DNA of 64,000 nucleotides from Clostridia bacterium (GCA_017416285.1 JAFQCU010000001.1:26556-90555); one strand, 5' to 3'. Positions 22,046-45,600 are shown, counted from the first letter of the stretch. Notes: generated by a model from the letters alone, not told the origin. A program made the numbers and translations.

Positions 22046-22744
22046 TTATTTTTCTTCGTTGTAATGCTTATAACCGGGATGCTTACCGGTAACCTTATAA
22101 TAATTTTCACGAAGATACATAAGCTTATCAATTTGCGGTCTTTCGATTTCCTGTGCGCCGCCCAAAAGATGAGCAGTTAAAGAAATCTTTGCAAAAAGCT
22201 CTAAGGTTTCCATACGGTAATAAGCAGTAATCAAATCGCAACCAACAGTTAACGCACCGTGGTTTTGAAGCAAAAATACATCGTGTTCCTTAAGGTAAGG
22301 CGCAATTGCTTCGGGAACTTCATTAGTTGAGGGAGTACCGTAAGGAGTAAGAGGAATAGAACCTATAGCAATAACGGTTTCAATCATAGAATATTCATCT
22401 AATGCCTTGCCTGCAACTGCATAACCGGTAGCTGTCGGAGGATGTGCGTGAACAACAGAACCAACGTCCTCACGTTCCTTATAGCAACGCAAGTGCATTT
22501 TAATTTCGCTTGACGGCTTATAGCCCTCAAGACCCTCAACAACCTCACCGTTCTCGTTAATAATAACAAGCTTTTCAGGGGTTATAAAGCTTTTACTAAT
22601 ACCTGTGGGTGTAGCAAGAAAGTTACCGTCGGGCAATTTTACAGATACGTTACCGTCGTTAGCCGCAACCCAGCCCAATTGCCACATTTTATGGCAAACG
22701 TCACACATTTGCTCTCTTAGTTCTTGATATTTCATTTTTATCAT
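22046..22744 (-). CDS. Class II aldolase/adducin family protein (L-fuculose-phosphate aldolase-like)
   Basis: 232 aa. Motifs NDGNVSVKL, SSEIKMH, VVHAHPP and LLQNHGALTVG. Confidence 0.75.
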   Translation of the reverse strand: MIKMKYQELREQMCDVCHKMWQLGWVAANDGNVSVKLPDGNFLATPTGISKSFITPEKLVIINENGEVVEGLEGYKPSSEIKMHLRCYKEREDVGSVVHAHPPTATGYAVAGKALDEYSMIETVIAIGSIPLTPYGTPSTNEVPEAIAPYLKEHDVFLLQNHGALTVGCDLITAYYRMETLELFAKISLTAHLLGGAQEIERPQIDKLMYLRENYYKVTGKHPGYKHYNEEK

Positions 22745-26023: not shown

Positions 26024-26326
26024 TTACTCTTCGTTTTTCTTATCCAACTTTTTGTTTCTGAAATAAAGAATTAAATCAGCACCAACCATAATTAAATTTA
26101 AGAAATAGAAAAATAATACATACCATTTATCTGCAAACGATGCCATATAAGCTTCGTTCACAAACTTTGATATTATACCCGCAATGTAGCCAAAGAAAAT
26201 AAGGCACAAAAAGCCCAAACTTTTTCCCTTGGCAGTTCTCGCCTTATACGATTTAATTACATTCATCGGCCAAGACGCACCAAAGCTTAATATCATAACA
26301 ATTTCTAACAATTCTGACATTTTCAA
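26024..26326 (-). CDS. 100-aa three-TM membrane protein, PQ-loop/SemiSWEET-like
   Basis: Three hydrophobic helices. The loop after TM1, SWPMNVIKSYKARTAKGKS, resembles the PQ-loop motif with PM in place of PQ. Confidence 0.4.
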   Translation of the reverse strand: MKMSELLEIVMILSFGASWPMNVIKSYKARTAKGKSLGFLCLIFFGYIAGIISKFVNEAYMASFADKWYVLFFYFLNLIMVGADLILYFRNKKLDKKNEE

Positions 26327-26337
26327 TTCTCCTATAA

Positions 26338-26946
26338 TCAGTATTTCAAAATCTCGGTTTTGAATTTATCGACACTACCCTCGAAAAGTATTGTTTTTAT
26401 ACCGGCAGCCTGTGCACCAATGATATTATTTATTCTATCATCAATAAAAACGCTTTCCTCGCATTTTAAATTATAATGTCGCAACAAATAATTAAAAATT
26501 TCTTTATTAGGTTTGGTAATACCAAGCTCCGCTGAAAATACAAGACCATCAAACATATCTAAAACTTGTTTAATTTCAGGTACAGTATGGTAGCTTTCTG
26601 CAAATGTTTTACTAATGTTTGAAAGCAAATATAAATGTCCACCATTTGATTTGATTTCCCTCAAAATTTCGGGCATACCCTTAATAAACGGTACATTTTT
26701 ATACCAATTATCATACACAAGGCAAGCCTTTTGGTGTAACGCATTTGGTAAGCGGCTGCAAACGCCTTGCTTTACCTCATCATCAGTAATACTGCCCTCA
26801 TCAAGCTTATCCCAATAAAGTCGGTCAAAAACAACCTCTTCAACCAATTTGGCATCCTTATAATTTTTAACGTAAACCGAAGTCATATATTCCGTATCAA
26901 ATTTAACTAAAACCTCGCCAAAATCAAATATGTAGTTCTTAACCAT
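26338..26946 (-). CDS. HAD-IA hydrolase, YihX-like (sugar-phosphate phosphatase type)
   Basis: Motif I YIFDFGEVLV (as in YihX, DLGNV), motif II LLSN, motif III TKPN, motif IV FIDDR. 8-nt overlap with the activase gene. Confidence 0.65.
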   Translation of the reverse strand: MVKNYIFDFGEVLVKFDTEYMTSVYVKNYKDAKLVEEVVFDRLYWDKLDEGSITDDEVKQGVCSRLPNALHQKACLVYDNWYKNVPFIKGMPEILREIKSNGGHLYLLSNISKTFAESYHTVPEIKQVLDMFDGLVFSAELGITKPNKEIFNYLLRHYNLKCEESVFIDDRINNIIGAQAAGIKTILFEGSVDKFKTEILKY

Positions 26947-27700
26947 CTAAAGAAAACTCCATTCCGAGCATTTTGTACTTTGCTCCTGCGGCAGCGTTAT
27001 AGGGTAATTTTTCCCATACGCTGTCCCCAATTATTTCTTTGATTTTAGTTAAATTATCATCCGTATCAATAATACTGGGAATTAGCGGTGTACGAATAAT
27101 ATATGGTTTACCACTTTGTTTTAAGATTTTAAAATTATCAAGTATTACCTTGTTATCAACACCTGTGTATTTTTGATGTAGCTTGCTGTCAGCAAGCTTA
27201 ATATCCATAATAACAAGATCGAGCTTTTCAATCACTGATTTAAATACTTCACTATCAGCAAAGCCGCTTGTTTCCATACACAGATGATAGTCCTTAAGCT
27301 TTTCAATAAGTGATAAAAGGAAATCGTGTTGTGCAAGTGGTTCGCCACCCGAAAACGTAAAACCGCCAAAAGAATCACCCAAAACATCAGCAGAGGCTTT
27401 AAGTTCTTTAACAAGGTCATTAACCGAAATGTCACGTCCGGTTATTTCAAGACAATTTTCAGGGCAAGCATAAATACATCTGCCAAACGGCCTACATTCA
27501 TCATGATTGCACTCTTTTTGACAACTTTTGCAGTCAATACATCTTACCGACTTATACATAAGCTGAGGCTTGCGTGACAGCCCTTCAGGGTTATGACACC
27601 ACCTGCAACGAAGCGGACAGCCCTTAAAAAACACTGTGGTTCGAATACCGGGGCCGTCATGCACCGCCATTTCCTTAATATCAAAAATTGTACCGTTCAT
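26939..27700 (-). CDS. Glycyl-radical enzyme activating enzyme (radical SAM)
   Basis: HDGPGIRT, then CPLRCRWC (nt 27596-27619). Extra ferredoxin-like Cys clusters CIDCKSCQKEC and CRPFGRCIYACPENC. I prefer the ATG at 27700 (TGAtATG junction) over the TTG at 27718. Confidence 0.9.
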   Translation of the reverse strand: MNGTIFDIKEMAVHDGPGIRTTVFFKGCPLRCRWCHNPEGLSRKPQLMYKSVRCIDCKSCQKECNHDECRPFGRCIYACPENCLEITGRDISVNDLVKELKASADVLGDSFGGFTFSGGEPLAQHDFLLSLIEKLKDYHLCMETSGFADSEVFKSVIEKLDLVIMDIKLADSKLHQKYTGVDNKVILDNFKILKQSGKPYIIRTPLIPSIIDTDDNLTKIKEIIGDSVWEKLPYNAAAGAKYKMLGMEFSLDG

Positions 27701-27701
27701 A

Positions 27702-28352
27702 TCAATACTTGATTTCAAAATTTATACCACTAACGCCACATACAGCGCCACCGTCTTTAAGCTCTTTATTATCAACGTGGGCAATCATCCACTTGTTTTT
27801 TGCCCATAAAAGCTTATCAGCATATTCACCGTCAAGAGGTGTATTTGTTCCCTTGGGAAGCGCAACAACCCAGCCAAATCCTTCAGAATTGGCTTCACAG
27901 GGACCATAGTGCAAGGTTGTGGCGTAACATTCTAAAACTGTGCCTGCGGGCACGTAAAATGCCTTAAATTTTGAAGAATCAATTTTATTATCCTTAACGT
28001 CCCACAAGTGACCAACAATAATTACAAGATCAGTTACTGCAATATTAATTTCACTTGAAGTGTGCCATTCGGTTGCGTTAAAGAAGTTGTTTCTACCCCA
28101 ACAGTAACCGATTTGAGTATCCATTTCACCGAAAAAGCGAATTCTTATTTCATCAGCTATTGCAAGCTTTTCAAATTCATCAACGCTTGGTTTATAAGCT
28201 GAGCCGCTTTCGGGATTGGCAATTTTCTTGGCTTCATTAACGATTTCGGTAATATCTACACCATCGATTATTCTACCAAACGAGTTAAACTCATCCGAGC
28301 AAACGTCAAAAAATTCCAATTCAGGATTTAATTTTTTCAATTTTTCTAACAT
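27702..28352 (-). CDS. DUF4867-like protein (cupin/ureidoglycolate-lyase-like?), function unknown
   Basis: ~217 aa starting at MLEKLKKLNPELEFF (ATG 28352, SD AAGGGTGA). The ORF-track N-terminal extension would overlap the GRE. The DUF assignment is from memory of the family. Confidence 0.55.
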   Translation of the reverse strand: MLEKLKKLNPELEFFDVCSDEFNSFGRIIDGVDITEIVNEAKKIANPESGSAYKPSVDEFEKLAIADEIRIRFFGEMDTQIGYCWGRNNFFNATEWHTSSEINIAVTDLVIIVGHLWDVKDNKIDSSKFKAFYVPAGTVLECYATTLHYGPCEANSEGFGWVVALPKGTNTPLDGEYADKLLWAKNKWMIAHVDNKELKDGGAVCGVSGINFEIKY

Positions 28353-28365
28353 TTTAATCACCCTT

Positions 28366-30351
28366 TTATACTGTATATGCCTGTCGTGCAATAACGTGGT
28401 CTTGATATTCCTTATCAAGTTCAACAAAGTATGCACTCCAACCCCAAATTCTAACCACTAATTGACGGTGATTTTCGGGATGTTTTTGAGCATCCAGCAT
28501 CTTATCAAGATTAACAGTATTAAGCTGTAGCTGGTGACCGCCACGATCAATAAAGTTTTTAACAAGTAAGCCCACTTTTTCAATACCATCATCATCGGAA
28601 AATACGCTTTGATGGAATTCAAGAGTTAGCGGTCCGCCGTTCATAGCATTTTCAAAATGCTGCTTAGTCATTGAAGCCACAACCGAAACCGGACCCTTTA
28701 CCTTTGCAAAAAGCGATACGGAATAATTGGTGCCAAAGGGTTCTTTTTCTCTTCTGCCGTCAGCAGAAGCACCAATTTCATTTGCGTGCCAAAGATAATA
28801 CATCGCACTGCCGGTACCCGCTCTGAAAATACCGCCACGGCAATTTTTTCTACCCTTGAGAGCGTTACCAAAGGCATCCAAAAGGTCAGTAGCAATACTG
28901 TCTACGAAATCATCATTATTGCCAAGTTTGGGCGCTTCATAACGTAGTTTGTGAAGCAATTCAGGAGTATTTTCAAAATTGCTGTCTACTGCTGAAATCA
29001 GTTCCGCCTTACTAATGCTTTGTTCTTCAAAAACATATTTCTTAATAGCGGCAAGGCTGTCAGCAGCGGTAGCAATACCCGTACCGTGAATACCAAAATT
29101 ATTGTATTTGCCGCCATTATAAATATCGCAGTCCATAAGCACGTTCATAAAGGGTGACGGAACAAACCACAAATCCTTTATGTTATCGCAAATGCTGTCA
29201 CATTCCTTGTTAATTTCGTTCTTTACGCTTGTGAAAAATTCTTCGTAAGAATTAGATGACAAAAGATTATTGTGTAATGCTATATCAACCGCTTTAGGAT
29301 AAGACATAGCGCTTATATTAGCAACGTCAGCGCCTATAAATGGAACTATAAATTCCCAACAAGCTGCCACTGCATAATTGGTTGCATCCTTATAATCATA
29401 TCCCATTTCAACAAGTGCCGGTATAACCACATCATCATTAGAATATTGTGGGAAGCCAAGACCCGCTTTAGTAAGCTTTGTAGCTTCGGTATAACGGTCA
29501 GCGGGTGTATTTTTAGAAACCCTCAAATTGATTTTTGGGTCAATCATTTTATTATTGCAAGAAGCTTTTAAGCAAAGCTCTGACAAGAAATTATAAACGT
29601 CATTTCCCTCTTCATCACAACCGCCAAGCATCATACTTTGACCGTTATCACCTTGCTGAACGCCAACGTAAATATCACTGTCAATATTAAAGGATAAGAA
29701 GAAATCCTCCAACAATTCAAGTGCTGTATCGGCAGTATAAACGCCGTTATCCATGTCTGCTCTAAGATACTGATACATATATCTGTCAAAACGACCGATT
29801 GTATTATGATAATTGCCTTCAAGCCACAACGCATAATGCAAAATGCGGAAAAACTGCAAAGCTTCACGGAAATTACGTGCCGGATAACGTGGCACCTGAG
29901 TTAATACCTCAACCAAATCTTCTCTGCCCTGTTTTTTAGCTTCTTCTAAATACTTATCCGAAAGCGCAATAATACTATCAATAGCTTTTTTACCATATTC
30001 ATCGGCAGATTCACGCTTTTTCAAAAGACCTGCGGCAATTGTATCGTAATAATTGGGTGATAAGTTCGATAAAAAGCCAAGCTCGTGTATGTAATGCTTT
30101 GATTCAATTTCTTTCCACTCTTCATCTGTGAAAATTTTAGGAATATTAGAAACCGTACGCAAAAATACAATTTGTTGACCTTCTAAAATTACAGCCTTTT
30201 CTTCCTTGCAAAGCTTATCCAAGCGATCGGTCATACGTTCAATAGGCGATAAACCCTTTTGGGAATATTCGCTTGCCAAATCCCAATCAACGACATGACG
30301 AAACTCATGATGTTCTTTATTTAAAATAAAGCTATACAAATTCTTATTCAT
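28366..30351 (-). CDS. Compact glycyl radical enzyme (PFL-fold, Cys-x-Glu eliminase-type active-site loop)
   Basis: 661 aa. C-terminus LDAQKHPENHRQLVVRIWGWSAYFVELDKEYQDHVIARQ (Gly637 = nt 28441-28443). Cys loop YAVAACWEF (Cys331 = nt 29359-29361). Also GQSMMLGG and DPKINLRVSKNTP blocks. SD AAAGGGGA. Confidence 0.85.
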   Translation of the reverse strand: MNKNLYSFILNKEHHEFRHVVDWDLASEYSQKGLSPIERMTDRLDKLCKEEKAVILEGQQIVFLRTVSNIPKIFTDEEWKEIESKHYIHELGFLSNLSPNYYDTIAAGLLKKRESADEYGKKAIDSIIALSDKYLEEAKKQGREDLVEVLTQVPRYPARNFREALQFFRILHYALWLEGNYHNTIGRFDRYMYQYLRADMDNGVYTADTALELLEDFFLSFNIDSDIYVGVQQGDNGQSMMLGGCDEEGNDVYNFLSELCLKASCNNKMIDPKINLRVSKNTPADRYTEATKLTKAGLGFPQYSNDDVVIPALVEMGYDYKDATNYAVAACWEFIVPFIGADVANISAMSYPKAVDIALHNNLLSSNSYEEFFTSVKNEINKECDSICDNIKDLWFVPSPFMNVLMDCDIYNGGKYNNFGIHGTGIATAADSLAAIKKYVFEEQSISKAELISAVDSNFENTPELLHKLRYEAPKLGNNDDFVDSIATDLLDAFGNALKGRKNCRGGIFRAGTGSAMYYLWHANEIGASADGRREKEPFGTNYSVSLFAKVKGPVSVVASMTKQHFENAMNGGPLTLEFHQSVFSDDDGIEKVGLLVKNFIDRGGHQLQLNTVNLDKMLDAQKHPENHRQLVVRIWGWSAYFVELDKEYQDHVIARQAYTV

Positions 30352-30371: not shown

Positions 30372-32306
30372 TTAAAGTGTTATTTCATATACAGCGGCTG
30401 TAAGTGGTTTGGAAGCCTTAAAGCTAACCTTACCGTCAGCCAATGAAATACTTTTGTCATCGTTAATACACGGATATATTTCACTAATAGTGCCATTTGA
30501 AAATTCTTTTGGCACTTCAAAGCTTATTTCATCTTCGCCACCATTGCGGAAAATACCAAGTCTGATTTTGTTGGCATTTTTTAAGGCTAAAACGCTGTAT
30601 CCTTTTGTATAAACCTTTTGCTGCTCGCCAATAAACACAGGCATTGCACCTAAAAGAAAATTTCGATTTTGCTTATAAACATCAATTCCCTTTTTGATAA
30701 GCGAAAGATTATAATCATCACATTTTTCAATGTGACCTGACAATGTCATTATTCCAAAAAATGCACACGACATGTTAAAAATTGTTTGCTGACCATCTGC
30801 CATTTGCTTGTAATATTCATCAGTATATGCTGAATTAATATCTAAACGGTGAGCATAGGTTGCAGGGAATGGAAAGCTCCAAATACCCATTTTTTCAGGA
30901 ATCATACAGCCCTGCATACCACGGATTATCGATGGGTTGTTTGTGAAGATTTCCTGATCGCTTGTGCTTTGCAAATGGAAATGCTTTAAAGTTCCGTTAT
31001 CACAGCGCATTGCTCCGCTTCCGCAGTTTTCAATAACCAAATCGGGCATATCCTCCATAAGCTTATCGATAAACTTGAAGAAGTTGTTGTTATTATCAAT
31101 TAACGCCGCTGCAAATGAACCTTCGCCATCACAACCGACACCCGTACTATGATTATAGTCGTTCTTAATGTAACGAATACCCATATCATAAAGATGCTTT
31201 ACTCTGCCGTATAAATAATCGGTAACTTCCTTGCATCCAAAATTTAAAAACTGTCTTTCTTCACCAATAGGCAAGCCACAACGAGTAAGTATTGCATCAG
31301 GTGAAATTTTGGAAATTGAAGTGTAACAAAATGCAGTTTCAAGCTCAAGCCATATACCGGGAATCATATTTTTAGATTTGATATATTCAATAATTGATTT
31401 GAATCCGCCTTCACCAAAAATGGCATCGTTTTCAATCCAATCACCAAAATCGGTTCCATTACCATTGCGAATAAACCAACCGTCATCTATACAGAAAAGC
31501 TCTGCGCCAACATTTGCGGCTGCATCAATAAGCGGTATAAGCTTTTCACGGCTTGGCATTGCCCACAAGCAGTTCATATAATCGTTAAAGCAAACCGTAA
31601 GCTCATCCAACTTTTTGCCGTTTTTACGCTTGTATTTTAAAAGCGATAATACAGCTTCATCAAAGCTTTCTGCCTCACCGTAAAGAACTGCTGGAGTTTC
31701 ATAACCCTCGTTCGGCTCTAAAACCTTATAAAAACCGTTATTATTTTCACTTGTAGCGGTACAATCAACACTTAGAGTGCAAACACCGTTATCACCCACA
31801 GTACCAAGCTCGAAAGACCAATTAGCAGATGCTTCTAATTCAAAGTACCATGCTTTTTTATCAGTCTTATCCTCAATAATTAAAATTGGATAATACTTAT
31901 GTGTTGACCAACTACCAGTACTTGAAATTGTTTTATCAATATGGGAGAAAGCATGCTTTGCAACAGGGTAAATACCAAGCTGGTACGGTGTAAGCGTTGT
32001 CCATTGTGCCTCACCCTGCCAAGCAAAATTACAAATATGTATAAGCACTTCCCTGTTATGAAAATCGGGAGCTATGTTTTCAAGATAAAGCGAACTAATA
32101 TGTGATACACGTAAGGGTTTATCGGTTATATTGTAAATAACATTGCTTCTTTTAGTAACGCCGCTTTCTTTACAGTATACTGATTTTTTATCAACACTAT
32201 ATTTTAAAAGATCAAGTCTTTTTTCGCCATCTCTTTCAGGTATGTTTTTTATCATACTTGCCGCAACGTTTGAGCCGTTATCAACAATAACCTTAAAATC
32301 TTTCAT
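30372..32306 (-). CDS. GH36 family alpha-galactosidase-like enzyme
   Basis: 644 aa. Motifs FCIDDGWF, YIKNDYN and ENCGSGAMRCD correspond to the GH36 catalytic blocks. Confidence 0.7.
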   Translation of the reverse strand: MKDFKVIVDNGSNVAASMIKNIPERDGEKRLDLLKYSVDKKSVYCKESGVTKRSNVIYNITDKPLRVSHISSLYLENIAPDFHNREVLIHICNFAWQGEAQWTTLTPYQLGIYPVAKHAFSHIDKTISSTGSWSTHKYYPILIIEDKTDKKAWYFELEASANWSFELGTVGDNGVCTLSVDCTATSENNNGFYKVLEPNEGYETPAVLYGEAESFDEAVLSLLKYKRKNGKKLDELTVCFNDYMNCLWAMPSREKLIPLIDAAANVGAELFCIDDGWFIRNGNGTDFGDWIENDAIFGEGGFKSIIEYIKSKNMIPGIWLELETAFCYTSISKISPDAILTRCGLPIGEERQFLNFGCKEVTDYLYGRVKHLYDMGIRYIKNDYNHSTGVGCDGEGSFAAALIDNNNNFFKFIDKLMEDMPDLVIENCGSGAMRCDNGTLKHFHLQSTSDQEIFTNNPSIIRGMQGCMIPEKMGIWSFPFPATYAHRLDINSAYTDEYYKQMADGQQTIFNMSCAFFGIMTLSGHIEKCDDYNLSLIKKGIDVYKQNRNFLLGAMPVFIGEQQKVYTKGYSVLALKNANKIRLGIFRNGGEDEISFEVPKEFSNGTISEIYPCINDDKSISLADGKVSFKASKPLTAAVYEITL

Positions 32307-32343: not shown

Positions 32344-32375
32344 ATATGCGCAGTATAAAAATATACTGCGCATAT
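32344..32375. promoter_or_regulatory. Perfect 14-bp inverted repeat (hairpin or operator) between araC-like gene and GH36 gene
   Basis: ATATGCGCAGTATA-aaaa-TATACTGCGCATAT. The T tract (TCTTTTT) lies only on the plus-strand side. Confidence 0.6.
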
Positions 32376-32396: not shown

Positions 32397-33224
32397 TTAT
32401 TTTCTGCGTTTTTCATTGCCACCGTTTGCTATACGATATTCTTCCGGTGTAACACCATAATATCGCTTAAACACACGGTGAAAATAGCTCTTGTGGTTAA
32501 AACCAACTTCATATCCTATATTTTCAATACTCTTTGTAGTTTCAACCAGCATTTTTTGAGCAGTTTCAAGCTTTCTTAGATTTATATATTCACTAAGATT
32601 TTGACCGATGTTCTTTTTAAATAATTTAGAAAAATAAGGGAAATTATAACCTGAAAAAGCCGCTACCGAACTTGGTGTCACAGTTTTCAAATTATTATCA
32701 ATATATGTCAAAATTGTTCTGACATCTATTGTAGCAACCTTGCTGCTTTCTAAAGTGCTTCGGTTAATGCGTATTAGTAATGCAAATAATACCTCCAAAC
32801 AACCCTCTATTACGTCTGAGAATAAGTCGTTTTGATCATTAAATTCCTTTTCAATCATAAAAAGAATATTTTCAATTCTTCTTATTTCGTTGGGAGGAAT
32901 ATTAATAATACTCACCGGACCAAATTCATCGGCGTGCTCTTTAAATATTTGGGGTAACGAAGTAGGCTTAATTTGAATTCTGAAAACCTCGACCTCATTA
33001 GAAGTGTCAAACCTATGACGTGAATCTGGATTAAACAAGCTCATACACCCACGAGAGCACTCGTAGGATTCATCCTTTACGTTTTGATGATAGCTGCCTG
33101 ATAAAACGTATTCCATTTCATAATACACATGAGCATGAACATTAACACCATAAGACGTTTTATACCGACTTATGGAATATTTTTTATCATTCTCAATGAA
33201 TGCAACTGGCCAATGGCATATCAT
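32397..33224 (-). CDS. AraC family transcriptional regulator (cupin sensor + 2x HTH)
   Basis: 275 aa. The C-terminus, IGYEVGFNHKSYFHRVFKRYYGVTPEEYR, is the AraC signature. Confidence 0.85.
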   Translation of the reverse strand: MICHWPVAFIENDKKYSISRYKTSYGVNVHAHVYYEMEYVLSGSYHQNVKDESYECSRGCMSLFNPDSRHRFDTSNEVEVFRIQIKPTSLPQIFKEHADEFGPVSIINIPPNEIRRIENILFMIEKEFNDQNDLFSDVIEGCLEVLFALLIRINRSTLESSKVATIDVRTILTYIDNNLKTVTPSSVAAFSGYNFPYFSKLFKKNIGQNLSEYINLRKLETAQKMLVETTKSIENIGYEVGFNHKSYFHRVFKRYYGVTPEEYRIANGGNEKRRK

Positions 33225-33257: not shown

Positions 33258-34049
33258 TTAAAGATCGTCTTCTTCAAGCGGTTGATCTACAATATCCAAA
33301 ACTGCGTTCTTAATTTTTTCTATTATTCCCTTATCGGCAACTTCTTCGCCCTTAAAAGGTAAAAATTTGTTATTAATAACGTCGCCATTAAAAAGCGAAC
33401 GGTAAAACGTAAGACCGGCGGCATATCTTCCGTAAATTTCAGTAAGGTGATAACCGTCACGGTTTAAACTCATACCACCGTTTTTATAATCAAATTCAGG
33501 TACGGTTTCTCTGATATGCTGAATAACGTCACCAACAGGAATAATAGGTGCGTTTATTAGTTTGGATGCCATTTTATAGCAGTCTCTTGCACGAATATAC
33601 ATTTCTCTCTGGTCAGAATTATAAACCGGGAAATACGGATGAGTAGCATCACTTTCATAAGCCCAAGTTTGATAAATATAAAACTTTGCATTAGGTGACT
33701 GCTTTAAAATTATATCGTAAAGCTGATTGATATAAGGATAATAAGTAAATGGGCGGCCGCATTGAACACTGCCTTGATTAAAGGTTACGATATCCCACTC
33801 TTCCATTTCGAGAGCTTCCATAAAGGTAACCTTTTTACCGGTGTTGTGACCATCAATTATCAAATCATAATCGGCGGCATTACTTTCAATTTTATCCATA
33901 TGACGCTTCAAGGTATGTCCCCCAATAAAAGGGCATACCAATTTAACTTCAATACCTGCATCAGCACAAATTTGTTTAAGCCACGTATGTGCATCTTCAG
34001 TGAAGCTATTACCAACACCAAAAATTTTAATCAAACCTATTCTCCCCAT
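33258..34049 (-). CDS. SGNH-like hydrolase (DUF4886-type), putative glycan deacylase
   Basis: Block I FGVGNSFTED and block V RDGYHL. 13-nt overlap with the upstream gene. Confidence 0.5.
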   Translation of the reverse strand: MGRIGLIKIFGVGNSFTEDAHTWLKQICADAGIEVKLVCPFIGGHTLKRHMDKIESNAADYDLIIDGHNTGKKVTFMEALEMEEWDIVTFNQGSVQCGRPFTYYPYINQLYDIILKQSPNAKFYIYQTWAYESDATHPYFPVYNSDQREMYIRARDCYKMASKLINAPIIPVGDVIQHIRETVPEFDYKNGGMSLNRDGYHLTEIYGRYAAGLTFYRSLFNGDVINNKFLPFKGEEVADKGIIEKIKNAVLDIVDQPLEEDDL

Positions 34050-36169
34050 TCAAGTATAATCTTCTTTTCATCACAAGAAAGATTAACAGAATAAAGCATA
34101 TCGCTAATTTTTTCAGCTTTAAGAGCTTCACCGTTAGCACAAATATTCTTAGGCTCGGTTTCACTGATAAAGCAGAATTTGCCGCCCTCTTCTACAACAC
34201 ATTTATTTTTAGCAAATAAACTAAAGGTTGCAGGTGCCATATATTTATCAATAATTCCGACAGGAATAAGTGACTTATTCAAAGGAATTATGTAATAAAG
34301 ACGGAAATCATCATAGTTTTTAAGAGTAAGATCAAGCTTTTCGCCCTTTTCAAGTACGGTAACTGTTTTTGCGAAATAATCAACAACAGCGCAACGTTCG
34401 TCAGCCATTCCGTATACGTCGGTAATAGAAACAGTACCCGAAACACTCTTTTCGTCCTCGTCGATATTAAAGGCTGCTACTATACCACCCTTTTCGGTCT
34501 TGTTAAACACCTTAAATATCTTGCCGTTGTGCTCACAATCCTCAAGCAAGCATTCATATACAGGGCGTGCAGATTCTTTAAGACGAATAATCTTACCGTC
34601 GCTGTAAACAATAGGCATAATCTTTTCTTTAATACTTCTGCCAAGCTCATCACTGACATAAACGGGACCGCCGCTCATTGCACGAAGAACAGAATTCTTA
34701 ACGCCTTGAGCATCATCAGACCACCACATATCCCAGTCACCGGTATAGATACTACCCTGAGCAAAAGCATTAAAGCTGCACTGTATAAGGTGTTGAACAA
34801 ACCACTTACGGTCTTCAGGCATAAAGTCACCGCTAATACGATTAACAAGACTTAAAGGACGGTTCCAGAAGTTTTCATTAGCCATACCCATACAGTTGAT
34901 AAGGTTACCGTCAAAATTACCTCCAACAGTTGCTTCTATAGCAGTATGAAGATTCTTAGCTATGTAACCAACGGGTGCCAAGTGTTCATAATTTAGAAGT
35001 ATGCAAGACTGCCAGTCAACCTTTACAAAATCGGCATTACAATCCTTGAAAAAGCTATTGTACATATTAAAATATTGGAATAACTTATCAAGACGAGGTG
35101 ACGGGATAAGACGTCCGTTATTATGGCTTATAGTTAAAAGGTCGCTATGCTCTCTTGCAATGGGACCTTCGGGGTCAATACCGTTCCAGTAGCCCAATGT
35201 AGGATACCAAATGCCAACCTTTAAGCCGTACTGTTCCTTAAGGTCGCCTACAGCAGCGGCAAGACCGTTCGGGAAGCGTACAGGGTCAGCTTCAAAGTTA
35301 TATAACTCACGTGAGTGCATTGTGGGAATATTATTGTTATGTACTTCAGCCCACATATCGTCGATAATTGCCCAACGTACAGGAATTCCCTTATCTTTAA
35401 ATTCTTGTGCCTTTTGAAGCAAGCCCTCGTGAGTAACGTCCATGTGGAATGCGTCCCAGCTACACCAACCGAGATATTCAAAAACTTCGGGATATCGTCT
35501 TTCTTTTCTAACCTTACCCTTTTTCTTCATAACTTTAAGACCGTATTCAGCAGTAATGTCAGGAAGCTTATAGGGGTCATTTTCAAAGCCGAGAATAAGA
35601 ATATGCTCAGAGCATTTACTAATCGGGAAACGAGCATAGATAAATAAGGTTATGCCGCCTTCTTCACAAGCAATAATATTACTTTTAAAGTAATTATCGC
35701 AGGTAGTTAAAAGATATGCATAGCTATTATCAGCCTGTTTAGCTAATAAAGCTTGTGTTCTTATCGGCATTTCCTCTAACTTAGAAAAAATCTTGGTACC
35801 ACACCAATAATCACAACGCATAAAGTTTGCCATATAGCTTTCACACGAAGGCATTGATTCAATATCAATACCCGCAGCGCTATCGGTATCAAGGTGATTT
35901 TGTCCCCAGTTTTTACCCAAAACAGGAGCATAATCGATATCAACCTTTAAAGCGGCAGTATTATCTTTAAATACAAGTGAAAGGAGAGCAGTAATATCAT
36001 TAGTTTTGTTTGAAAAACTAATTTCATTTTCACTCGCCTTTACAATATCTAAATACTGCTTGTCGCCACCTTGACCTCTAACCCAGAATTTCATTCCGTC
36101 AAAAAGAACGGCATCATTATTTAAAAGGCAAAGCTTGTTATCATATAAAAATTTTGTCATTAACATCAA
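34037..36169 (-). CDS. GH36 raffinose-synthase/Sip1-type alpha-galactosidase-like enzyme
   Basis: 710 aa. Motifs LGWCSWDAF, AIIDDMW and VKVDWQ are typical of the Sip1 branch. ATGA overlap with the upstream gene. Confidence 0.65.
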   Translation of the reverse strand: MMLMTKFLYDNKLCLLNNDAVLFDGMKFWVRGQGGDKQYLDIVKASENEISFSNKTNDITALLSLVFKDNTAALKVDIDYAPVLGKNWGQNHLDTDSAAGIDIESMPSCESYMANFMRCDYWCGTKIFSKLEEMPIRTQALLAKQADNSYAYLLTTCDNYFKSNIIACEEGGITLFIYARFPISKCSEHILILGFENDPYKLPDITAEYGLKVMKKKGKVRKERRYPEVFEYLGWCSWDAFHMDVTHEGLLQKAQEFKDKGIPVRWAIIDDMWAEVHNNNIPTMHSRELYNFEADPVRFPNGLAAAVGDLKEQYGLKVGIWYPTLGYWNGIDPEGPIAREHSDLLTISHNNGRLIPSPRLDKLFQYFNMYNSFFKDCNADFVKVDWQSCILLNYEHLAPVGYIAKNLHTAIEATVGGNFDGNLINCMGMANENFWNRPLSLVNRISGDFMPEDRKWFVQHLIQCSFNAFAQGSIYTGDWDMWWSDDAQGVKNSVLRAMSGGPVYVSDELGRSIKEKIMPIVYSDGKIIRLKESARPVYECLLEDCEHNGKIFKVFNKTEKGGIVAAFNIDEDEKSVSGTVSITDVYGMADERCAVVDYFAKTVTVLEKGEKLDLTLKNYDDFRLYYIIPLNKSLIPVGIIDKYMAPATFSLFAKNKCVVEEGGKFCFISETEPKNICANGEALKAEKISDMLYSVNLSCDEKKIILEWGE

Positions 36170-38067
36170 TCCAATCTAGTAGTATAAATAGCCATTGAAT
36201 TGGCCGGTAAAACGTCGGAAATTACGTCACTAACATTTTCAAATATCTTATCAATTCCAATTATTTCGCCCTTATCATCTGGAACAATCTTAGCCGAATC
36301 ATAAAGATGACGAGCGAATTTAGCCTTAATTTCGGATTCGAATTCGATATTAACTTCACGTGCTTCTTTGCCTGAATTAACCGCTAAAATAGTATAATTA
36401 CCATCGCTTGCCTTCACTAATGAAGCGCAAATCGTATCATTAACGTTGCCCTCGTAAATTTTTGAATCGTGGTCCCCTAAATACTTACTCATAAGCGTAA
36501 AAGCATAGTAAGAGGGATACGGTGTGTGTGTTCTTTTTAAGTTCGGCATAATACCAAAACGATGATCACCGTCAACGAAATTATCAAATCCATCCCATTT
36601 ACAGAAAGGCCATCTTTGGTCAAACAAAGACCAAAGCAGGTTGCAGTTTACACCGGAATTCAAGAAAGCGGTTTGAATTTCAGCCAATGCAATTCCCTGC
36701 AAGGGATTTGTATACATATCGTAAAAACAAGCGTTATATTCATCAAACCAAAATTCCTTACCTTCGGGAACACAGCGAGTGTATCTTGAAAGCATATGGG
36801 AAACACCCGTATATAAGGGTACCTTATCATCCTTATAACCTATGCCACCCTTATAAGCAAGCCAAGCGGTGCTCTTTTGATCTTCGAAACTACCATTTTC
36901 TAAAAGTTCTTTATTATCGCCAACCTTATGAAGCGAAACTTTGTCATAAAACATTGTAGCCTCAAAAGGAAGCACATCATGGTATATACCTATATAAGCA
37001 TAATCCTTATCACAGGTATTAAACTTCATTGAATATTTTTTCCACTCAAGTGAAATTTCATTAACAGGAATACTAATTACACTGTTTTCCGTAAGATTAC
37101 TTACGCCTTCAAGACCTGCCTGAATAAGTGTATTTTCAATTTCAGTAGCTTCAAAAGCACCAAATAAAAATCCACGTTGCCAAGTTTCAATATTGCTGCC
37201 TTCAGCTGCCTTGGCATATAACTCAAGCACGTATTCGGTATTGGGTTCAAGCTTAACGTATTGTTGAGCTCTAAAACCGGGAACACTTAACTTCAATGAA
37301 CCAATTCCGTTATAGGTTTCACGTTCAATATCGACCGTATCAATATAATCCATATATTTATGGGATGAATAAATATCAATACTGTCATCAATACTTTTTA
37401 CAGCCCATTGAAGCATCTTAGGATCGCAATCGCCCATAACGCCGGTATTAGGACCTACAAGCTTAACGAGGTGTCGACGGTGATCTGCACGTAGTTGACG
37501 GTCAACCGCCCTTGCACAAAGCTCATATGCTTTATAATCGGGAAGGTCATCCCTTTCGCAAGAAAGAGTCCAACAACCATCATTTGGTTCAGTTAAAATA
37601 ATAAGATACTTAATATTAGTGTATCCCCTAATTTCGATAAGCTGATGAACAACCTCGCTCACCCAATTTCCGTATTTTTTTGCGGCAATTTTTGGGTTTT
37701 CATCGTATAAGGGAGATTCTTTATTTATAAAAATATGACCGGCAATCCACCAAGCGGCATTGAGAGCAACCTCTACACCAAATTCCTGCATTTTCGAAAG
37801 CCACTTATAGAGTGCCTGCATTTCTTCGTTTTCCCAATTCCATTCGCCATCTTTATAAGCACACAAATCAAAAAAGGTACGAGCGATTTTAAGTTCCATA
37901 TTCTTAACACGCTCAAGCTCTAAATTACGTTCTTCCTCGTTATACTGCTTATCAGGATAATCAGCACGAAATGTATATGCATGATAAATGGCGCCAGCAC
38001 CATGAAAGTGCTCTTGAATACAATTATTATTGTTAAGTTTTAAAGATACTTTTTTAATTTCTGACAT
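36166..38067 (-). CDS. Cytoplasmic TIM-barrel (clan GH-A-like) glycosidase candidate with an internal beta-sandwich insertion; family unassigned
   Basis: 633 aa. Putative acid/base in ILTEPND (E160, nt 37588-37590). Putative nucleophile in FWFDEYN (E443, nt 36739-36741). Paralogous to the 41024-42682 product. No signal peptide. Confidence 0.45.
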   Translation of the reverse strand: MSEIKKVSLKLNNNNCIQEHFHGAGAIYHAYTFRADYPDKQYNEEERNLELERVKNMELKIARTFFDLCAYKDGEWNWENEEMQALYKWLSKMQEFGVEVALNAAWWIAGHIFINKESPLYDENPKIAAKKYGNWVSEVVHQLIEIRGYTNIKYLIILTEPNDGCWTLSCERDDLPDYKAYELCARAVDRQLRADHRRHLVKLVGPNTGVMGDCDPKMLQWAVKSIDDSIDIYSSHKYMDYIDTVDIERETYNGIGSLKLSVPGFRAQQYVKLEPNTEYVLELYAKAAEGSNIETWQRGFLFGAFEATEIENTLIQAGLEGVSNLTENSVISIPVNEISLEWKKYSMKFNTCDKDYAYIGIYHDVLPFEATMFYDKVSLHKVGDNKELLENGSFEDQKSTAWLAYKGGIGYKDDKVPLYTGVSHMLSRYTRCVPEGKEFWFDEYNACFYDMYTNPLQGIALAEIQTAFLNSGVNCNLLWSLFDQRWPFCKWDGFDNFVDGDHRFGIMPNLKRTHTPYPSYYAFTLMSKYLGDHDSKIYEGNVNDTICASLVKASDGNYTILAVNSGKEAREVNIEFESEIKAKFARHLYDSAKIVPDDKGEIIGIDKIFENVSDVISDVLPANSMAIYTTRLD

Positions 38068-41023: not shown

Positions 41024-42682
41024 TTACTCCTTAACAGTTGAATAAACGGTTATGGAACCTGCGGGAATTGTATCCTGTAAAACTTTATCAACGTTTTTAA
41101 AGCCCTTATCGGCATCAATCATTTCAGCCGAGGTATTAGGTTTGATTGTAACGGGGTCAAAGCAATATCTGTACATATTCTTGCCGATACTCTTCTTGAA
41201 GTTGATGCTTATCTTTTGTTCCATAGAGGTTGAATTGACAACGATAACGTTTTGGTACTTTTTGCCGTCCTTTTCGTATTCAACCATTGAAAGACATACA
41301 CCGTTTTCTCCTTCAGCGTAATAAATCTTATTATTCGAGAATTCACCGGCAAATCTGGTAAGCAATGAATATCCGTAAAACAGCTTATAAGGAATTGCGC
41401 TGGTATAGAGCGAAGGAGCAGTACCTAAAATATGGATACCTTCTTTAAATTCGCCGCCTGTATCGGTTCTTGTAGGCCATACGATTTCAAACATTTGCCA
41501 ATAAATACAACTGTTAACTCCCGAATTCATTGCAGCAATTACCGTTTGAGCAATTTGCTGAGCATAGAAGTCGGTCTTTTGATTTTCGATAGCGTTACCG
41601 CCATACATCCATTCGTCAAACCAGAACGGCTTGCCGGTTTTCGAAATAATTCTTACGAATTCTTCAAAATAATATACCCAGAGGTCATAGTTATCATCGT
41701 AAACAGATGCAGCTGAATTGATGGTACCCGAACCGGGCCATGTAGGAATATACCAGTGGAAGGTATAAACGTCGATGTAATCGTCAATTCTGCTAATCCA
41801 CCAGTTGATTTCTTCCTCTAAGGTTTCACCCTCATAGAAATCTTTGCTTAAGCCGTACTGAGGACCGGTAAGCTTTACCATATCACGTAGACCCTCGTCC
41901 TTAAGCTTCTTATCGGTTGCCTGAATAACGTCAACGGTTACTTCCCAAGCATTCTTGGTTTCCTTTTTACCCGGAGCAACATAGAAGGTATATTCATTGA
42001 AGTGATAGGGTTCAGTAAACATTACGAAATATTCAATATCGTAACCACGTTTGATGATAACCTCTTCAATAAAGAGCTTAACCCAATCGGAGTACATATC
42101 GAGCATATCAGAATAAATGTTCAACTGACCGCTTATATACCAAGGAATAGTATATTTGAGGTGGTCTTGAGTGGTGGCATTGGCAATAGAGCCAATACCC
42201 CAACCCATATTAACTGCAACCTCAATATCACGTTCTTCCATAGCGTCAAGCCATTTATAGAACGCCTGCATTCTTTCGCTGTCCCAGTCGTAGATGACCT
42301 GGTCGCCGTTACGTTCTTTAAAAGCAAATCCGGCGTCCATATAAGAACGAACCATACCTACGTCCATATCGTCCATTCTTTTAAGTTCTTCTTCTATCTG
42401 AGCATCACTATAATTACGGCCGTACTCATCGGGCAAGAACATAAAGCCCTGGTTAATAGCGTTAACACCATTCCATTTAGAATTAAACACCTTATTGTTT
42501 TCAACATTAAGATTTAAAACCTCAGGATCAGATTCGGTAAATGTCTGTGTTTCATACACGGGGTCCTTGGCTGCAGAATTATCGGCAGGTACTTCTACCT
42601 TAGTTTCAACGTATTTGCCACAACCAGCAACACCTAAAACCATAACCAAAGCCAATACTAAAGCAATAATTTTTTTAGTCAT
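41024..42682 (-). CDS. Surface lipoprotein, TIM-barrel (clan GH-A-like) glycosidase candidate; family unassigned
   Basis: 552 aa. Lipobox LGVAGC. Motifs MFTEPYH and FWFDEWM. Paralogue of the 36166-38067 product. Confidence 0.45.
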   Translation of the reverse strand: MTKKIIALVLALVMVLGVAGCGKYVETKVEVPADNSAAKDPVYETQTFTESDPEVLNLNVENNKVFNSKWNGVNAINQGFMFLPDEYGRNYSDAQIEEELKRMDDMDVGMVRSYMDAGFAFKERNGDQVIYDWDSERMQAFYKWLDAMEERDIEVAVNMGWGIGSIANATTQDHLKYTIPWYISGQLNIYSDMLDMYSDWVKLFIEEVIIKRGYDIEYFVMFTEPYHFNEYTFYVAPGKKETKNAWEVTVDVIQATDKKLKDEGLRDMVKLTGPQYGLSKDFYEGETLEEEINWWISRIDDYIDVYTFHWYIPTWPGSGTINSAASVYDDNYDLWVYYFEEFVRIISKTGKPFWFDEWMYGGNAIENQKTDFYAQQIAQTVIAAMNSGVNSCIYWQMFEIVWPTRTDTGGEFKEGIHILGTAPSLYTSAIPYKLFYGYSLLTRFAGEFSNNKIYYAEGENGVCLSMVEYEKDGKKYQNVIVVNSTSMEQKISINFKKSIGKNMYRYCFDPVTIKPNTSAEMIDADKGFKNVDKVLQDTIPAGSITVYSTVKE

Positions 42683-42697
42683 CGTTTTGTACCTCCT

Positions 42698-45600
42698 TTA
42701 ATTCTTCTTGCGCTTTTTAGCCAAAATAACAATTAAAACAACGGCTGCAGCGCCAACAACAAGCACGCCACCAATAATTGAAAGAACAATTACAAGCACG
42801 CTGGGGCCAACCCATTCTCTTGTAATGAGATACTTCTTATTGTTTGTGCCTTCGCTTCCCTCTTCAACAAGAACCTCTTCGGTAATTACTTTATCAGGGA
42901 AAGCAATCGGGTCGGTTTCTTGGAAAGCAGTCTTATAATCACCATAGGTGTTCGGGTCAACCTTAAAGCCACGTTCAGCAACAAAAATTTCAACCATATC
43001 AAGCTCTAAGGTACCCTTAGTACCCTTAATTACGAGATATGCATCCTTGCTGCTGCCAGAATTAAAGCTGAAGTTTACACGGTTCCACTTGCCGTCATCC
43101 TTCATAGGAAGCTTGCCGGTTTCACCGTTCTTAATGTTTTCAAATACAGTATATTCGCCGTCGCTATAAAGTCCTACGGTAATATCGCTGCCCTTTGAAA
43201 GCTTAGTCCAAGCTGCAAAGGTGTAGTTTTTATTCTGCTTAGAAAGCGGAATAACTCTTACGTATTCTTTGCCGTTAGATGCAGCGGCATCAAACTTGAA
43301 CTGGTAATTCTGTTGCCAGTCATGTTCCTTGTTGGTTACCTTTTCTACTGTTGCGCCGTCAGTTAACGGACCCCAGTTTTCGTTGGTAACTTCTTCTTCA
43401 AAGTGAGAGTTTGAAACCTCATTAAAGAATTTTTCGGTATACTTAAGGTTTTCAAAATCGGGTGTGCGTTCTACAAGTTCAACACGGTCAATGTATATAT
43501 CGTCGACCGAAGCACCTTCGTTACGGTTTGCATGGAACTTACAAATCTGGAAGCAGAAACCGTCTTTGTCGGTATGGTCCTTAGTAACAGTACCTAAAAG
43601 ATACTTGTACCAACCGTTATTTTCTTCTAAAGCAGAAGCTTTTTGAGGTTTAATGTTAGTTGAAACACCGATATATGCATATTCGCCTGATTGAAGCATA
43701 TCCGACTGGTCGCGGGTATTTGAACCAAGGAATGCATAATAGTAAACGTTTTCTGCCGGCTGTGCAGGCTTAATCCAAACGTATACGTCATAGGTGTAGT
43801 CATCCTTCATCTGGAATTCCTTGTTAGAAACTACGGGGAAGAAAATACTGGTTTCAATACTTTCCATAATCTTACCGGGTTTAGCGTGAAGTGATTGTTT
43901 GCCTTCTAATACGTTCTTAGGATCATTAACAATTTCATAATATTCGAAACCGATATCGCCAAGCTCGTAATCTTCAAAGCCCTGAACAATAACTGTACCG
44001 GGTTTTGCCTTACCGCTAAAGCGTGCTTCAAGCTTATGATTATCGCTAATGTCGTTTAAACGATAGGTCTTATTGGTAGAAACCAAATCACCGTATTCGT
44101 ACCAACCTTCAAAGGTAGCGCCTTCAAATGCGTTAGCAACTACTCTTGCATCATCACCTGCTTGAACACCGAAGGACTTGGTAACAGTACCGAGTGTTGC
44201 ATCGTTAGGTGAGGTTTCAATTGAATACTGTTCAGTTAAAGTGAAATTATCGAACCACATGGTTCTGGGTTCACTACTGTCATTAACGTCATAAATTACC
44301 AACTTAAAGTATTGCGCATTAGGAACAACCTCGCCCGTTGTAAGAGTAAAGGTTACGGTATTCCAGCCACGTGTTCCAACATTGTTGATAAATGACCACT
44401 GAGTATCTGAACCCATACCAAGGTTCTTTTTATCGTAACCAAACGCTGCTGCATAATCGGTAAACGGAGCTTCAACATAGTAGTCAAGCGAAACCTTATA
44501 GGTCGTATTTGACTTCATCTTTATACCCTTAAAGACATAGGTTTGGTTAGAGTTTTTAGAAGTATTAGTGTATTCGGTAGCATTAACAACCTTAAAGGTA
44601 CCGCCCTTTTCGCTTGAGTGCTCGAATACAGCTTCTGCTTGCTTAAAGTAAGGATAGATTGAATCGTCCTTATCGTCAAAGGTAAGTTTGGTAACTACCT
44701 TATTGTTATCGATTTCGGTTTCTTCAACGGTAAAGTCATCAAAGAATACCCAAGCATCTGGGTTGAGAACAAGCTGGAACCAATCAGCCGAAGCGTTTGT
44801 AATATTACCTGTTGAGAATACTACCTTAACCTCGGTCCAACCGTCGGCATTATTTTTCTTAAACCAGGTAACGTCATTTGCTTTACCGAGAGCAGATTCG
44901 ATAAACTTAACACCAAAAAGGTTTAACTCACCGCTTGCGGTGGGATTTGCCTGATAGTATTTAAAGATAAGCTTATATGTTTTGTTCTTTTCAAGAGTGA
45001 GGGGGCTCTTAGCACCGCCGAGAGTAATCGACGCACCGTCCTTACCTGCCTTCCCCTTTAAAATAGCGATTTCAAGACCGCTTAAGTTGCCCGAAGGAAC
45101 GTAATCAGGGTCAATCTTAGCAGGAAGCTTAACAACAGTTGCACCAGCTGAGGTTTTACCTTCGTTGGTTTCATCAAAGGTTAAACGGGCCACTTCGGTA
45201 TCACCATCGTATACACAGAAGTTATCAAGATAACCCTTAAAGCCGGCGCCTACGTATAAGGTATGATAAGCAAGGGCTTTATCACCTGTCGGAGTAAAGT
45301 TAACCGACTGGGTTGCCCATTCGTTAAGCTTGTCAGAGGTATCCCACCAATTTTGGCCGGTGATACCGCCACCTGTGTTATGAACACCAACATAGCAGTG
45401 ACCTTTAAAGCTTTCATTAAGTGCATAGTTATCAAACTTTAAGGTATAAGTCTTACCGGGGGTAAGAGACATTTCGGGAACACCCAAAAGGTTAAACCAA
45501 ATTTGACCTGATTGAATATCATTAGCTGAGTTATCAATATAAATCGCATAATTCGGTTCAGAAGGTTTAACTGTCGTATTGTTGGTTTTTTCTTTTTCAA

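Follow-up and report, generated by a model that had tools for sequence, protein, structure and literature searches.

Why does a glycyl radical enzyme (GRE) gene lie inside a locus for plant-glycan utilisation, with none of the accessory genes that mark the known GRE pathways, and which of its neighbours belong to it? The question is raised by positions 26024-30351 of a 64,000-nt window (the whole stretch of DNA analysed; GCA_017416285.1 JAFQCU010000001.1:26556-90555) from the metagenome-assembled genome (MAG) of an uncultured Clostridia bacterium. Five tightly packed open reading frames (ORFs), all on the minus strand, were distinguished in this region: (i) a compact GRE of 661 aa (28366..30351), (ii) a DUF4867 cupin of the SftX/SqvB type (27702..28352), (iii) a radical S-adenosylmethionine (SAM) GRE activase of 253 aa (26939..27700), (iv) a HAD-IA family phosphatase, distantly YihX-like (26338..26946), and (v) a small membrane protein of 98 aa with three hydrophobic segments (26024..26320). 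An initial annotation of the window had treated the five genes as one dedicated module. The results are best explained by a smaller functional unit, i.e., a two-gene radical system composed of the compact GRE and its own activase, normally under an adjacent AraC-family sensor and here embedded in a long plant-glycan utilisation operon. The pair probably acts on a plant-derived sugar-like molecule.

The GRE matches PF02901 (284 bits, 4.7e-84; limited to profile positions 209-637) and the glycine radical family PF01228 (70 bits, 3e-19). In profile-profile comparison (hhalign) it aligns end to end with canonical GREs of 780-830 aa, and it is approximately 100-130 residues shorter than the characterised eliminase- and isomerase-type enzymes, the shortening being due to deletions at canonical positions ~87-160 and ~186-215. 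An AlphaFold2 model based on a two-phylum alignment (predicted local distance difference test score, pLDDT, 89.4; predicted template modelling score, pTM, 0.90) depicts a complete enzyme with the full barrel of the pyruvate formate-lyase (PFL) type and a C-terminal glycine-radical domain; in it, the two finger loops and the second half-barrel stand out well, and the N-terminal strands appear only as short elements. Compared with solved eliminase/isomerase-type GREs, the model gave a Foldseek probability of 1.00, template modelling (TM) scores of 0.83-0.88 and 20-25% identity, and since all of these enzymes score 0.8-0.88, Foldseek does not separate eliminases from isomerases. The Cys loop reads A330-C331-W332-E333 and the glycyl motif R634-I-W-G637-W-S, and C331, W332, E333 and G637 are invariant across two phyla (alignments of 82 and 62 sequences). 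The Cys-x-Glu motif, which marks the GRE 1,2-eliminase/isomerase class (PMC13450708), is intact (C331-W332-E333). The deposited protein is publicly annotated as 'pyruvate formate-lyase'; this function was rejected because the Cys-Cys pair is absent (a single Cys follows A330) and the match to the PFL model TIGR01255 reaches only 80 bits (cut-off 994), and the label is wrong for these compact GREs in general.

No characterised close relative of the GRE was retrieved from NCBIfam, by a sequence search of the PDB or with Foldseek, and its identity to any solved GRE is at most 25%. All NCBIfam equivalogs, including those for HypD (NF043068; 279 bits, cut-off 1100), CutC, sulfopropanediol dehydratases and PFL, as well as TIGR01774 (299 bits, cut-off 678), remained far below their cut-offs, so the initial view of the enzyme as an orphan holds. 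Its best sequence match in the PDB is glycerol dehydratase (247 bits; 24% structural identity). With that enzyme (1R8W) and with the propanediol dehydratases (5I2A and 9RCO) it shares the barrel fold (TM 0.84-0.85), the Cys-x-Glu loop, the C-terminal glycyl radical domain and a dedicated adjoining activase. It differs from them in sequence (24% structural identity), in length (~125-180 residues shorter), in the glycyl motif (R-I-W-G-W instead of R-V-A-G-Y), in the Cys loop, where Trp332 replaces Val, and in having no aldehyde-handling or shell genes nearby. The differences extend to the pocket. His164, Ser282, Tyr339, Asp447 and Tyr640 of glycerol dehydratase, which we take from the structural literature to be its substrate contacts, correspond in the compact GRE to the invariant Asn96, to Asn183 (in most members), and to the invariant Gly237, Asn345 and Gly514, respectively; the His164/Asn96 equivalence was drawn through a 50%-identical proxy sequence with a numbering offset of -1, and that of Asp447 and Asn345 is an ungapped reading of the alignment. 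Only His281, kept as His182, is retained among the compared pocket residues. The presumed pocket of the compact GRE is bounded by N96, H182/N183, a loop without variation (229-239), W332, N345 and G514-Y519.

The activase (TIGR02494, 252 bits; cut-off 174) carries the radical-SAM motif CX3CX2C at Cys28/32/35 and has every feature by which GRE-activating enzymes were judged, i.e., the family score, the cluster motif and adjacency to a GRE. Its ferredoxin-like insert holds eight Cys (Cys54-83) in only ~30 residues, where a CX2CX2CX3C motif precedes an atypical CX5CX3CX3C, which makes the activase compact like the GRE. From sequence, there is strong support for both proteins carrying the residues required for glycyl and thiyl radical chemistry (Gly637, Cys331 and the radical-SAM motif).

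To which genes this pair is tied was apparent from its relatives. When each species was represented by a single genome, 151 of them were retrieved (metagenomes gave 231 hits), and the best 80 of the 151 were fetched as loci (given L numbers below). Their GREs are 64-89% identical to the window GRE, and all come from uncultured MAGs of Acutalibacteraceae, Oscillospiraceae and other Clostridia from ruminants, other herbivores and Hadza humans. The five window proteins were run by tblastn against the 80 loci, and gene order was counted in the 70 species-level loci whose sequence extends far enough downstream of the GRE. The activase lies directly 3' of the GRE in 52 of these 70, the stop and start codons overlapping in most cases, and a single gene separates the two in 14 more (66/70 adjacent overall); no activase was found in 4/70. 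An AraC-family gene occurs within three genes of the GRE in 43/73 loci, mostly divergent at the head of the operon. Because clustering of the neighbouring ORFs revealed only these two recurrent partners of the GRE, the conserved unit is made up of the AraC regulator, the GRE and the activase. A Pfam census that sought a conserved pathway partner among 96 flanking proteins of the first 52 loci (genes of the AraC cluster excluded) returned 134 families, each in at most four proteins, and no shell or aldehyde dehydrogenase family.

The remaining genes of the region behave differently. A DUF4867 gene, wrongly said in the initial annotation to be constant between GRE and activase, occupies this slot in 5 of the 70 loci (L001, L002, L005, L006 and L039), in all of which the GRE is at least 86% identical to that of the window; it occurs elsewhere in four further loci, including L004 and L007, where it closes the operon at a distance of ~7 kb. 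In nine other species the slot is taken by a GDSL/SGNH esterase gene of ~245 aa (L019, L021, L031, L033, L038, L042, L047, L052 and L053). Homologues of the HAD phosphatase and of the small membrane protein were each detected in a single locus out of 80 (L039 and L002, respectively), which makes their occurrence sporadic. The arrangement of the window is common only to L002 and L039, and partly to L004, L007 and L011, and the GRE-DUF4867-activase trio is kept in four genomic contexts (L001; L005; L006; L002/L039) of one sub-lineage. Fucose or rhamnose genes lie near the GRE in only ~9/80 loci, so that this link, too, is confined to the window lineage and a few others. From these counts, the five-gene set is not a conserved unit; the DUF4867, HAD and small membrane proteins are lineage-specific additions, and the adjacency of GRE and DUF4867, on which their proposed partnership depended, is largely not conserved. 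Comparative genomics thus already contradicts an obligate partnership. As a separate observation, the GRE-activase junction has gained an extra gene at least twice, i.e., DUF4867 in the window sub-lineage and the GDSL/SGNH esterase in another.

The window DUF4867 protein (PF16161, 239 bits, 5.7e-71; cut-off 28.7) matches the cupin in PDB entry 9GYY with 183 bits, and each of the four metal ligands of the 2-His/2-Glu site has its counterpart in the alignment (E95, H97, E101 and H148). It thus belongs to the same family as the SftX/SqvB cupins (9GYY and 9GYZ), which, unlike the window protein, are encoded in sulfoglycolysis clusters (PMC11968277). The authors of that study proposed a role in the handling of ketose rings or anomers, detected no mutarotase activity, named FucI-family isomerases and FGGY kinases as the usual neighbours, and reported no GRE neighbourhood in their survey (PMC11968277). 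In L005 the DUF4867 gene stands beside genes for a FucI-like isomerase, an FGGY kinase, a DUF4432 protein and a class II aldolase of the fructose-bisphosphate type, and in L042 it accompanies an aldose epimerase and an FGGY kinase. Since this is the usual company of the family, DUF4867 is best assigned to a rare-sugar pathway of isomerase, kinase and aldolase, an occasional neighbour of the GRE, and not regarded as a GRE subunit. It may act on the ring or anomeric form of a substrate or product, and DUF4867 or the GDSL esterase could possibly serve as an accessory that prepares the form of the substrate.

The HAD protein exceeds a cut-off only with the generic HAD-IA model (TIGR01509, 53 bits; cut-off 29.4). 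A YihX-type glucose-1-phosphatase was rejected, the YihX model NF006991 scoring 70 bits against a cut-off of 295. The ORF of the small membrane protein spans 26024-26326, with a probable real start at an ATG at 26320 that is preceded by an AGGAG motif. The protein resembles SemiSWEET/PQ-loop transporters in its length of ~98 aa and its three hydrophobic segments, and its weak PQ-loop match (PF04193, 19.5 bits) lies below the Pfam gathering score of 22; because a sequence search of the PDB gave only chance matches, with no solved SemiSWEET among them, the SemiSWEET label is unproven.

The wider family was outlined by an exhaustive search of representatives of 50%-identity clusters. Many compact relatives of 640-750 aa share the C-W-E loop, the R-x-W-G-[WF] motif, Asn345 and a short N-terminus, with 105-150 residues ahead of the aligned core compared with 190-250 in canonical GREs. 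By these signatures, the window GRE is a member of a large, architecturally distinct clade of compact C-W-E GREs. Members vary at positions 514-522, where the window GRE reads GSAMYYWH, a pattern that would be expected if the family had diversified to use related substrates. Neither a solved structure nor a curated family model exists for any C-W-E clade member, and the clade goes unmentioned in the literature found, the relevant items being the paper on the DUF4867 structure and a GRE review of 2026.

A sister group, 46-50% identical to the window GRE and carrying the same residue at all compared sites, including 514-522, occurs in Kiritimatiellia, Lentisphaeria and Victivallales. Its activase gene lies directly 3' of the GRE in 42/68 loci, and a sugar-porter-family gene of the major facilitator superfamily (MFS) abuts the GRE on its upstream side in 23 of the 57 loci with enough upstream sequence; the porter scores 336 bits on TIGR00879 (cut-off 238), and the model nearest to it, that of the xylose transporter XylE, stays below cut-off. 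Frequent neighbours are a convergent AraC gene and a melibiase-like gene. Among these loci, which belong to the Planctomycetes-Verrucomicrobia-Chlamydiae (PVC) group, L085 and L086 also have an AraC gene. In Victivallales, a gene for an arabinofuranosidase of glycoside hydrolase (GH) family 51 precedes the GRE and a GH27 gene follows it. GH51 stands next to the GRE in six Bacillota loci as well, and because the Bacillota and Victivallales enzymes are only 26% identical, it was recruited independently in the two groups. When operon mates are present in Bacillota, they are enzymes of plant-glycan debranching, i.e., GH51, GH127, GH36 of two types, GH3 and GDSL esterases; GH27/36-like genes recur beside the GRE in both phyla. 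A different setting, repeated in many samples, was observed on a 1.2-Mb contig of Lentisphaerae (L081-L083), where an orthologous compact GRE gene is placed between genes for an FtsJ-type methyltransferase and a Sua5/YciO protein, with overlapping stop and start codons.

Taken together, the sugar-porter MFS of the sister group and the debranching operon mates point to a neutral sugar-like substrate from plant glycans. Most likely, the substrate is a neutral, unphosphorylated sugar or polyol freed from these glycans, and our leading guess, a loose lead, is a pentose or galacto-type sugar such as L-arabinose. The context in two phyla thus lends indirect support to the carbohydrate substrate proposed at the outset. 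Its phosphorylation is not supported, since no kinase or phosphotransferase system (PTS) gene is conserved with the GRE and a single further species was found to have the HAD gene; we also rejected a phosphorylated or anionic substrate because Arg and Lys are absent from the mapped aligned pocket positions. We give about an even chance to the view that the enzyme, controlled by AraC, cleaves a C-O bond in a neutral sugar or polyol by CXE-type radical chemistry. In such a reaction, the thiyl radical would take a hydrogen from a carbinol carbon, the hydroxyl of which would be deprotonated by Glu333; the resulting ketyl radical would lose its beta C-O substituent (water, an alkoxide or the ring oxygen), and the cysteine would give the hydrogen back, yielding a deoxy-keto product. 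A bolder form of this proposal, possible but doubtful, is that the C-W-E GREs are a substrate-diversified family acting directly on free, unphosphorylated plant monosaccharides, cyclitols or even glycosides (e.g., as a C-O lyase of L-arabinose or some other galacto-configured sugar). Small accessory proteins, such as DUF4867 or a GDSL esterase, would then bring the substrate into the right ring or anomeric form or deacetylate it. If true, this would be a previously unrecognised radical entry step into plant-sugar fermentation by strict anaerobes.

Several observations weigh against a neutral sugar or polyol as the substrate. None of the 80 Bacillota loci carries the sugar porter; in ~20/80 loci, often amid housekeeping genes, the operon holds only the AraC, GRE and activase genes, and such minimal loci would also suit a freely diffusing small diol. 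No activase gene lies within 8 kb of the GRE in L081-L083. Each glycosidase partner is present in a minority of loci and may mirror the general gene content of glycan degraders, and gene context is the sole functional evidence. Finally, the top matches, both in sequence and by Foldseek E-value, are glycerol and propanediol dehydratases (247 bits for the former, 226 and 220 bits for the latter). The missing porter and the many minimal loci keep a diffusible diol in play as a serious rival: the enzyme would be a compact, microcompartment-free diol dehydratase acting on glycerol, ethylene glycol or the 1,2-propanediol that fucose and rhamnose yield, and general alcohol or aldehyde dehydrogenases encoded elsewhere would take care of the aldehyde. 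This would agree with the retained CXE motif and His182, and with the window genes fucI, the FucA-like aldolase gene and rhaBAD, the products of which would give lactaldehyde and then propanediol; FucI and aldolase genes adjoin the GRE in L061 and L066, and the propanediol sensor PocR is an AraC-family protein. We nevertheless consider it rather unlikely, given the four glycerol dehydratase contacts replaced by invariant residues (and Ser282 mostly by Asn183), the low TIGR01774 score and the coupling of the sister-group GRE to a sugar-porter MFS and not to an aquaglyceroporin. Moreover, no recurrent gene for an iron-type alcohol dehydrogenase, aldehyde dehydrogenase, PduL or a shell protein emerged from the neighbour analyses, which included no dedicated search for them, and the only gene of the alcohol dehydrogenase family noted was of the zinc type, on the opposite strand in L081-L083.

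The pathway envisaged in the initial annotation, in which the GRE with an obligate DUF4867 partner would open a fucose- or rhamnose-derived sugar phosphate ahead of an aldolase, the HAD phosphatase and the mini-transporter, had a precedent. YbiW and PflD are indeed 1,5-anhydrohexitol-6-phosphate C-O lyases ('GRE isomerases') that feed an aldolase; they (8ID7, 8ID0 and 8YJO) likewise possess the CXE loop, and PflD gave the highest query-normalised TM score (0.87-0.88). The five window genes are tightly packed and apparently co-transcribed, the trio persists in its four contexts, and a class II aldolase gene and rhaBAD follow downstream. However, YbiW and PflD are only 21-24% identical to the window GRE (PDB matches of 170-220 bits) and differ from it in size and sequence signatures; no PTS or kinase gene that would indicate a phosphorylated substrate was seen beside the compact GRE, and the porter of the sister group is of the proton-symport type. 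With DUF4867 so rarely in the slot, displaced by ~7 kb in two loci and replaced by an esterase in nine species, with the HAD and PQ-like genes each in one locus of 80, and with so few loci near fucose or rhamnose genes, we judge this pathway very unlikely. Another conceivable substrate is the hydroxyproline of plant hydroxyproline-rich glycoproteins (extensins and arabinogalactan proteins), whose glycans would be trimmed by the neighbouring GH127, GH51, GH36 and GH78 enzymes; GH127, GH51 and related enzymes act on the glycans of extensins and arabinogalactan proteins. HypD is the second-best NCBIfam match and the third-best PDB match of the GRE, GH127 and GH51 genes adjoin the GRE in several loci, and a gene for a U32 collagenase-like peptidase is adjacent in L001. 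Against this, the HypD score lies far under its cut-off, the Trp-Asp pair of HypD aligns with His182-Asn183, no recurrent pyrroline-5-carboxylate reductase or amino-acid transporter gene was noted in the neighbourhood, and the transporter coupled to the sister-group GRE is a sugar porter. A hydroxyproline-type dehydratase is accordingly regarded as extremely unlikely. Cleavage of a neutral sugar or polyol is the reading that we prefer.

The surroundings of the GRE in the window are those of a glycan degrader. The first 11 kb are taken up by housekeeping genes (RNase J, PGK, TPI and iPGM), and from 11.2 kb to the window end a single minus-strand array forms a glycan-utilisation locus. This array comprises, in order, genes for (i) rhamnose catabolism (rhaD, rhaA and rhaB), (ii) further sugar enzymes (a PMI-like cupin, a SASA esterase, a beta-lactamase-fold protein, GH94 and an MGH1-like GH), (iii) a class II aldolase, a metallophosphoesterase and GH78, followed by the five genes of the region, (iv) GH36, AraC, DUF4886 and a raffinose-synthase-like GH36, (v) a true L-fucose isomerase (987 bits; cut-off 775) and GH29, and, more distally, (vi) a 1766-aa protein with a carbohydrate-binding module (CBM) and ABC sugar transporters. 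The GH36 and GH78 flanks, the class II aldolase downstream of the region and rhaB, rhaA and rhaD ~10 kb further on were thus confirmed as initially described, and so were the five genes and their tight junctions, by reading of the ORFs and direct reading of the junctions: the DUF4867/activase junction is TGAtATG, and the 13-nt gap between the GRE and DUF4867 genes contains a ribosome-binding site. The absence of hallmark accessory genes was borne out as well. No alcohol dehydrogenase, aldehyde dehydrogenase or microcompartment shell Pfam family is represented among the window genes, which tile without a gap of more than 410 nt after base 1004 and leave no room for shell genes; in this the window differs from loci of GRE-associated microcompartments (GRM).

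Directly upstream of the GRE is the gene for a GH36-type glycosidase (30372..32306, minus strand; PF02065), the sole curated match of which is weak (beta-L-arabinopyranosidase NF053652, 202 bits; cut-off 1100), and beyond it lies the AraC-family regulator gene (32397..33224, minus strand; Pfam HTH_18 and AraC_binding), which likely regulates the GRE unit. A consensus scan located a palindromic hairpin with a perfect 14-bp stem (32344..32375) and no terminator-like site on the minus strand within 23.8-32.3 kb. The hairpin falls in the 90-nt gap between the AraC and GH36 genes and might terminate transcription in both directions or be a palindrome to which a regulator binds; it possibly marks a transcription boundary where the GH36-GRE unit starts.

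Other genes of the window were noted for their own sake. The class II aldolase-family protein (22046-22744, minus strand; 232 aa) has an ambiguous role, since the models for 3-oxo-tetronate-4-phosphate decarboxylase, L-ribulose-5-phosphate 4-epimerase and L-fuculose-phosphate aldolase score alike, all below cut-off; an aldolase gene of this type is paired with fucI in L061. Three large minus-strand products, i.e., the 1766-aa protein (42698-47998), whose sole Pfam match is CBM_4_9, and proteins of 552 aa (41024-42682) and 633 aa (36166-38067) without a confident family match, are possibly glycoside hydrolases that have yet to be classified; of the three, the 633-aa protein is also conserved among window-like loci. 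A DUF5696 protein (51409-53607, minus strand) and a DUF4886 protein (33258-34049, minus strand) are also encoded within the sugar-utilisation operon, and the DUF4886 gene adjoins a raffinose-synthase-like GH36 gene in six related loci too.

Two features of related loci concern the GRE itself. Tandem cassettes in L013 (1-21983), L014, L020, L045 and L072 contain two to four different GRE paralogues of 650-750 aa, and a separate divergent AraC-family regulator accompanies each paralogue. The Cys loops of these paralogues read G-C-Y-E or otherwise, and their glycyl motifs are R-V-C-G-W-N, the presence of which led us to reject their assignment as aminoacyl-radical enzymes without glycine; some cassettes have no activase of their own. 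This arrangement suggests a battery of sensor-plus-radical-enzyme modules. In L008, L019, L021, L068, L070 and L071, the GRE-activase pair is adjoined by a gene for a protein of ~490-510 aa without a Pfam match, which, judged by eye, has the look of a right-handed beta-helix.

GREs perform chemically difficult anaerobic reactions, and newly assigned clades have revealed pathways for choline, hydroxyproline, isethionate and anhydro-sugars. The compact clade is large, with hundreds of species-level matches in two phyla, so far only in uncultured organisms of the rumen, hindgut and digesters, and it combines its own active-site signature and a shortened architecture with a link, by context, to the release of plant cell-wall sugars. 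Owing to their small size, the compact GRE and its activase may be easier to handle, and the assignment of their substrate could reveal a new step of fibre fermentation in ruminants and humans.

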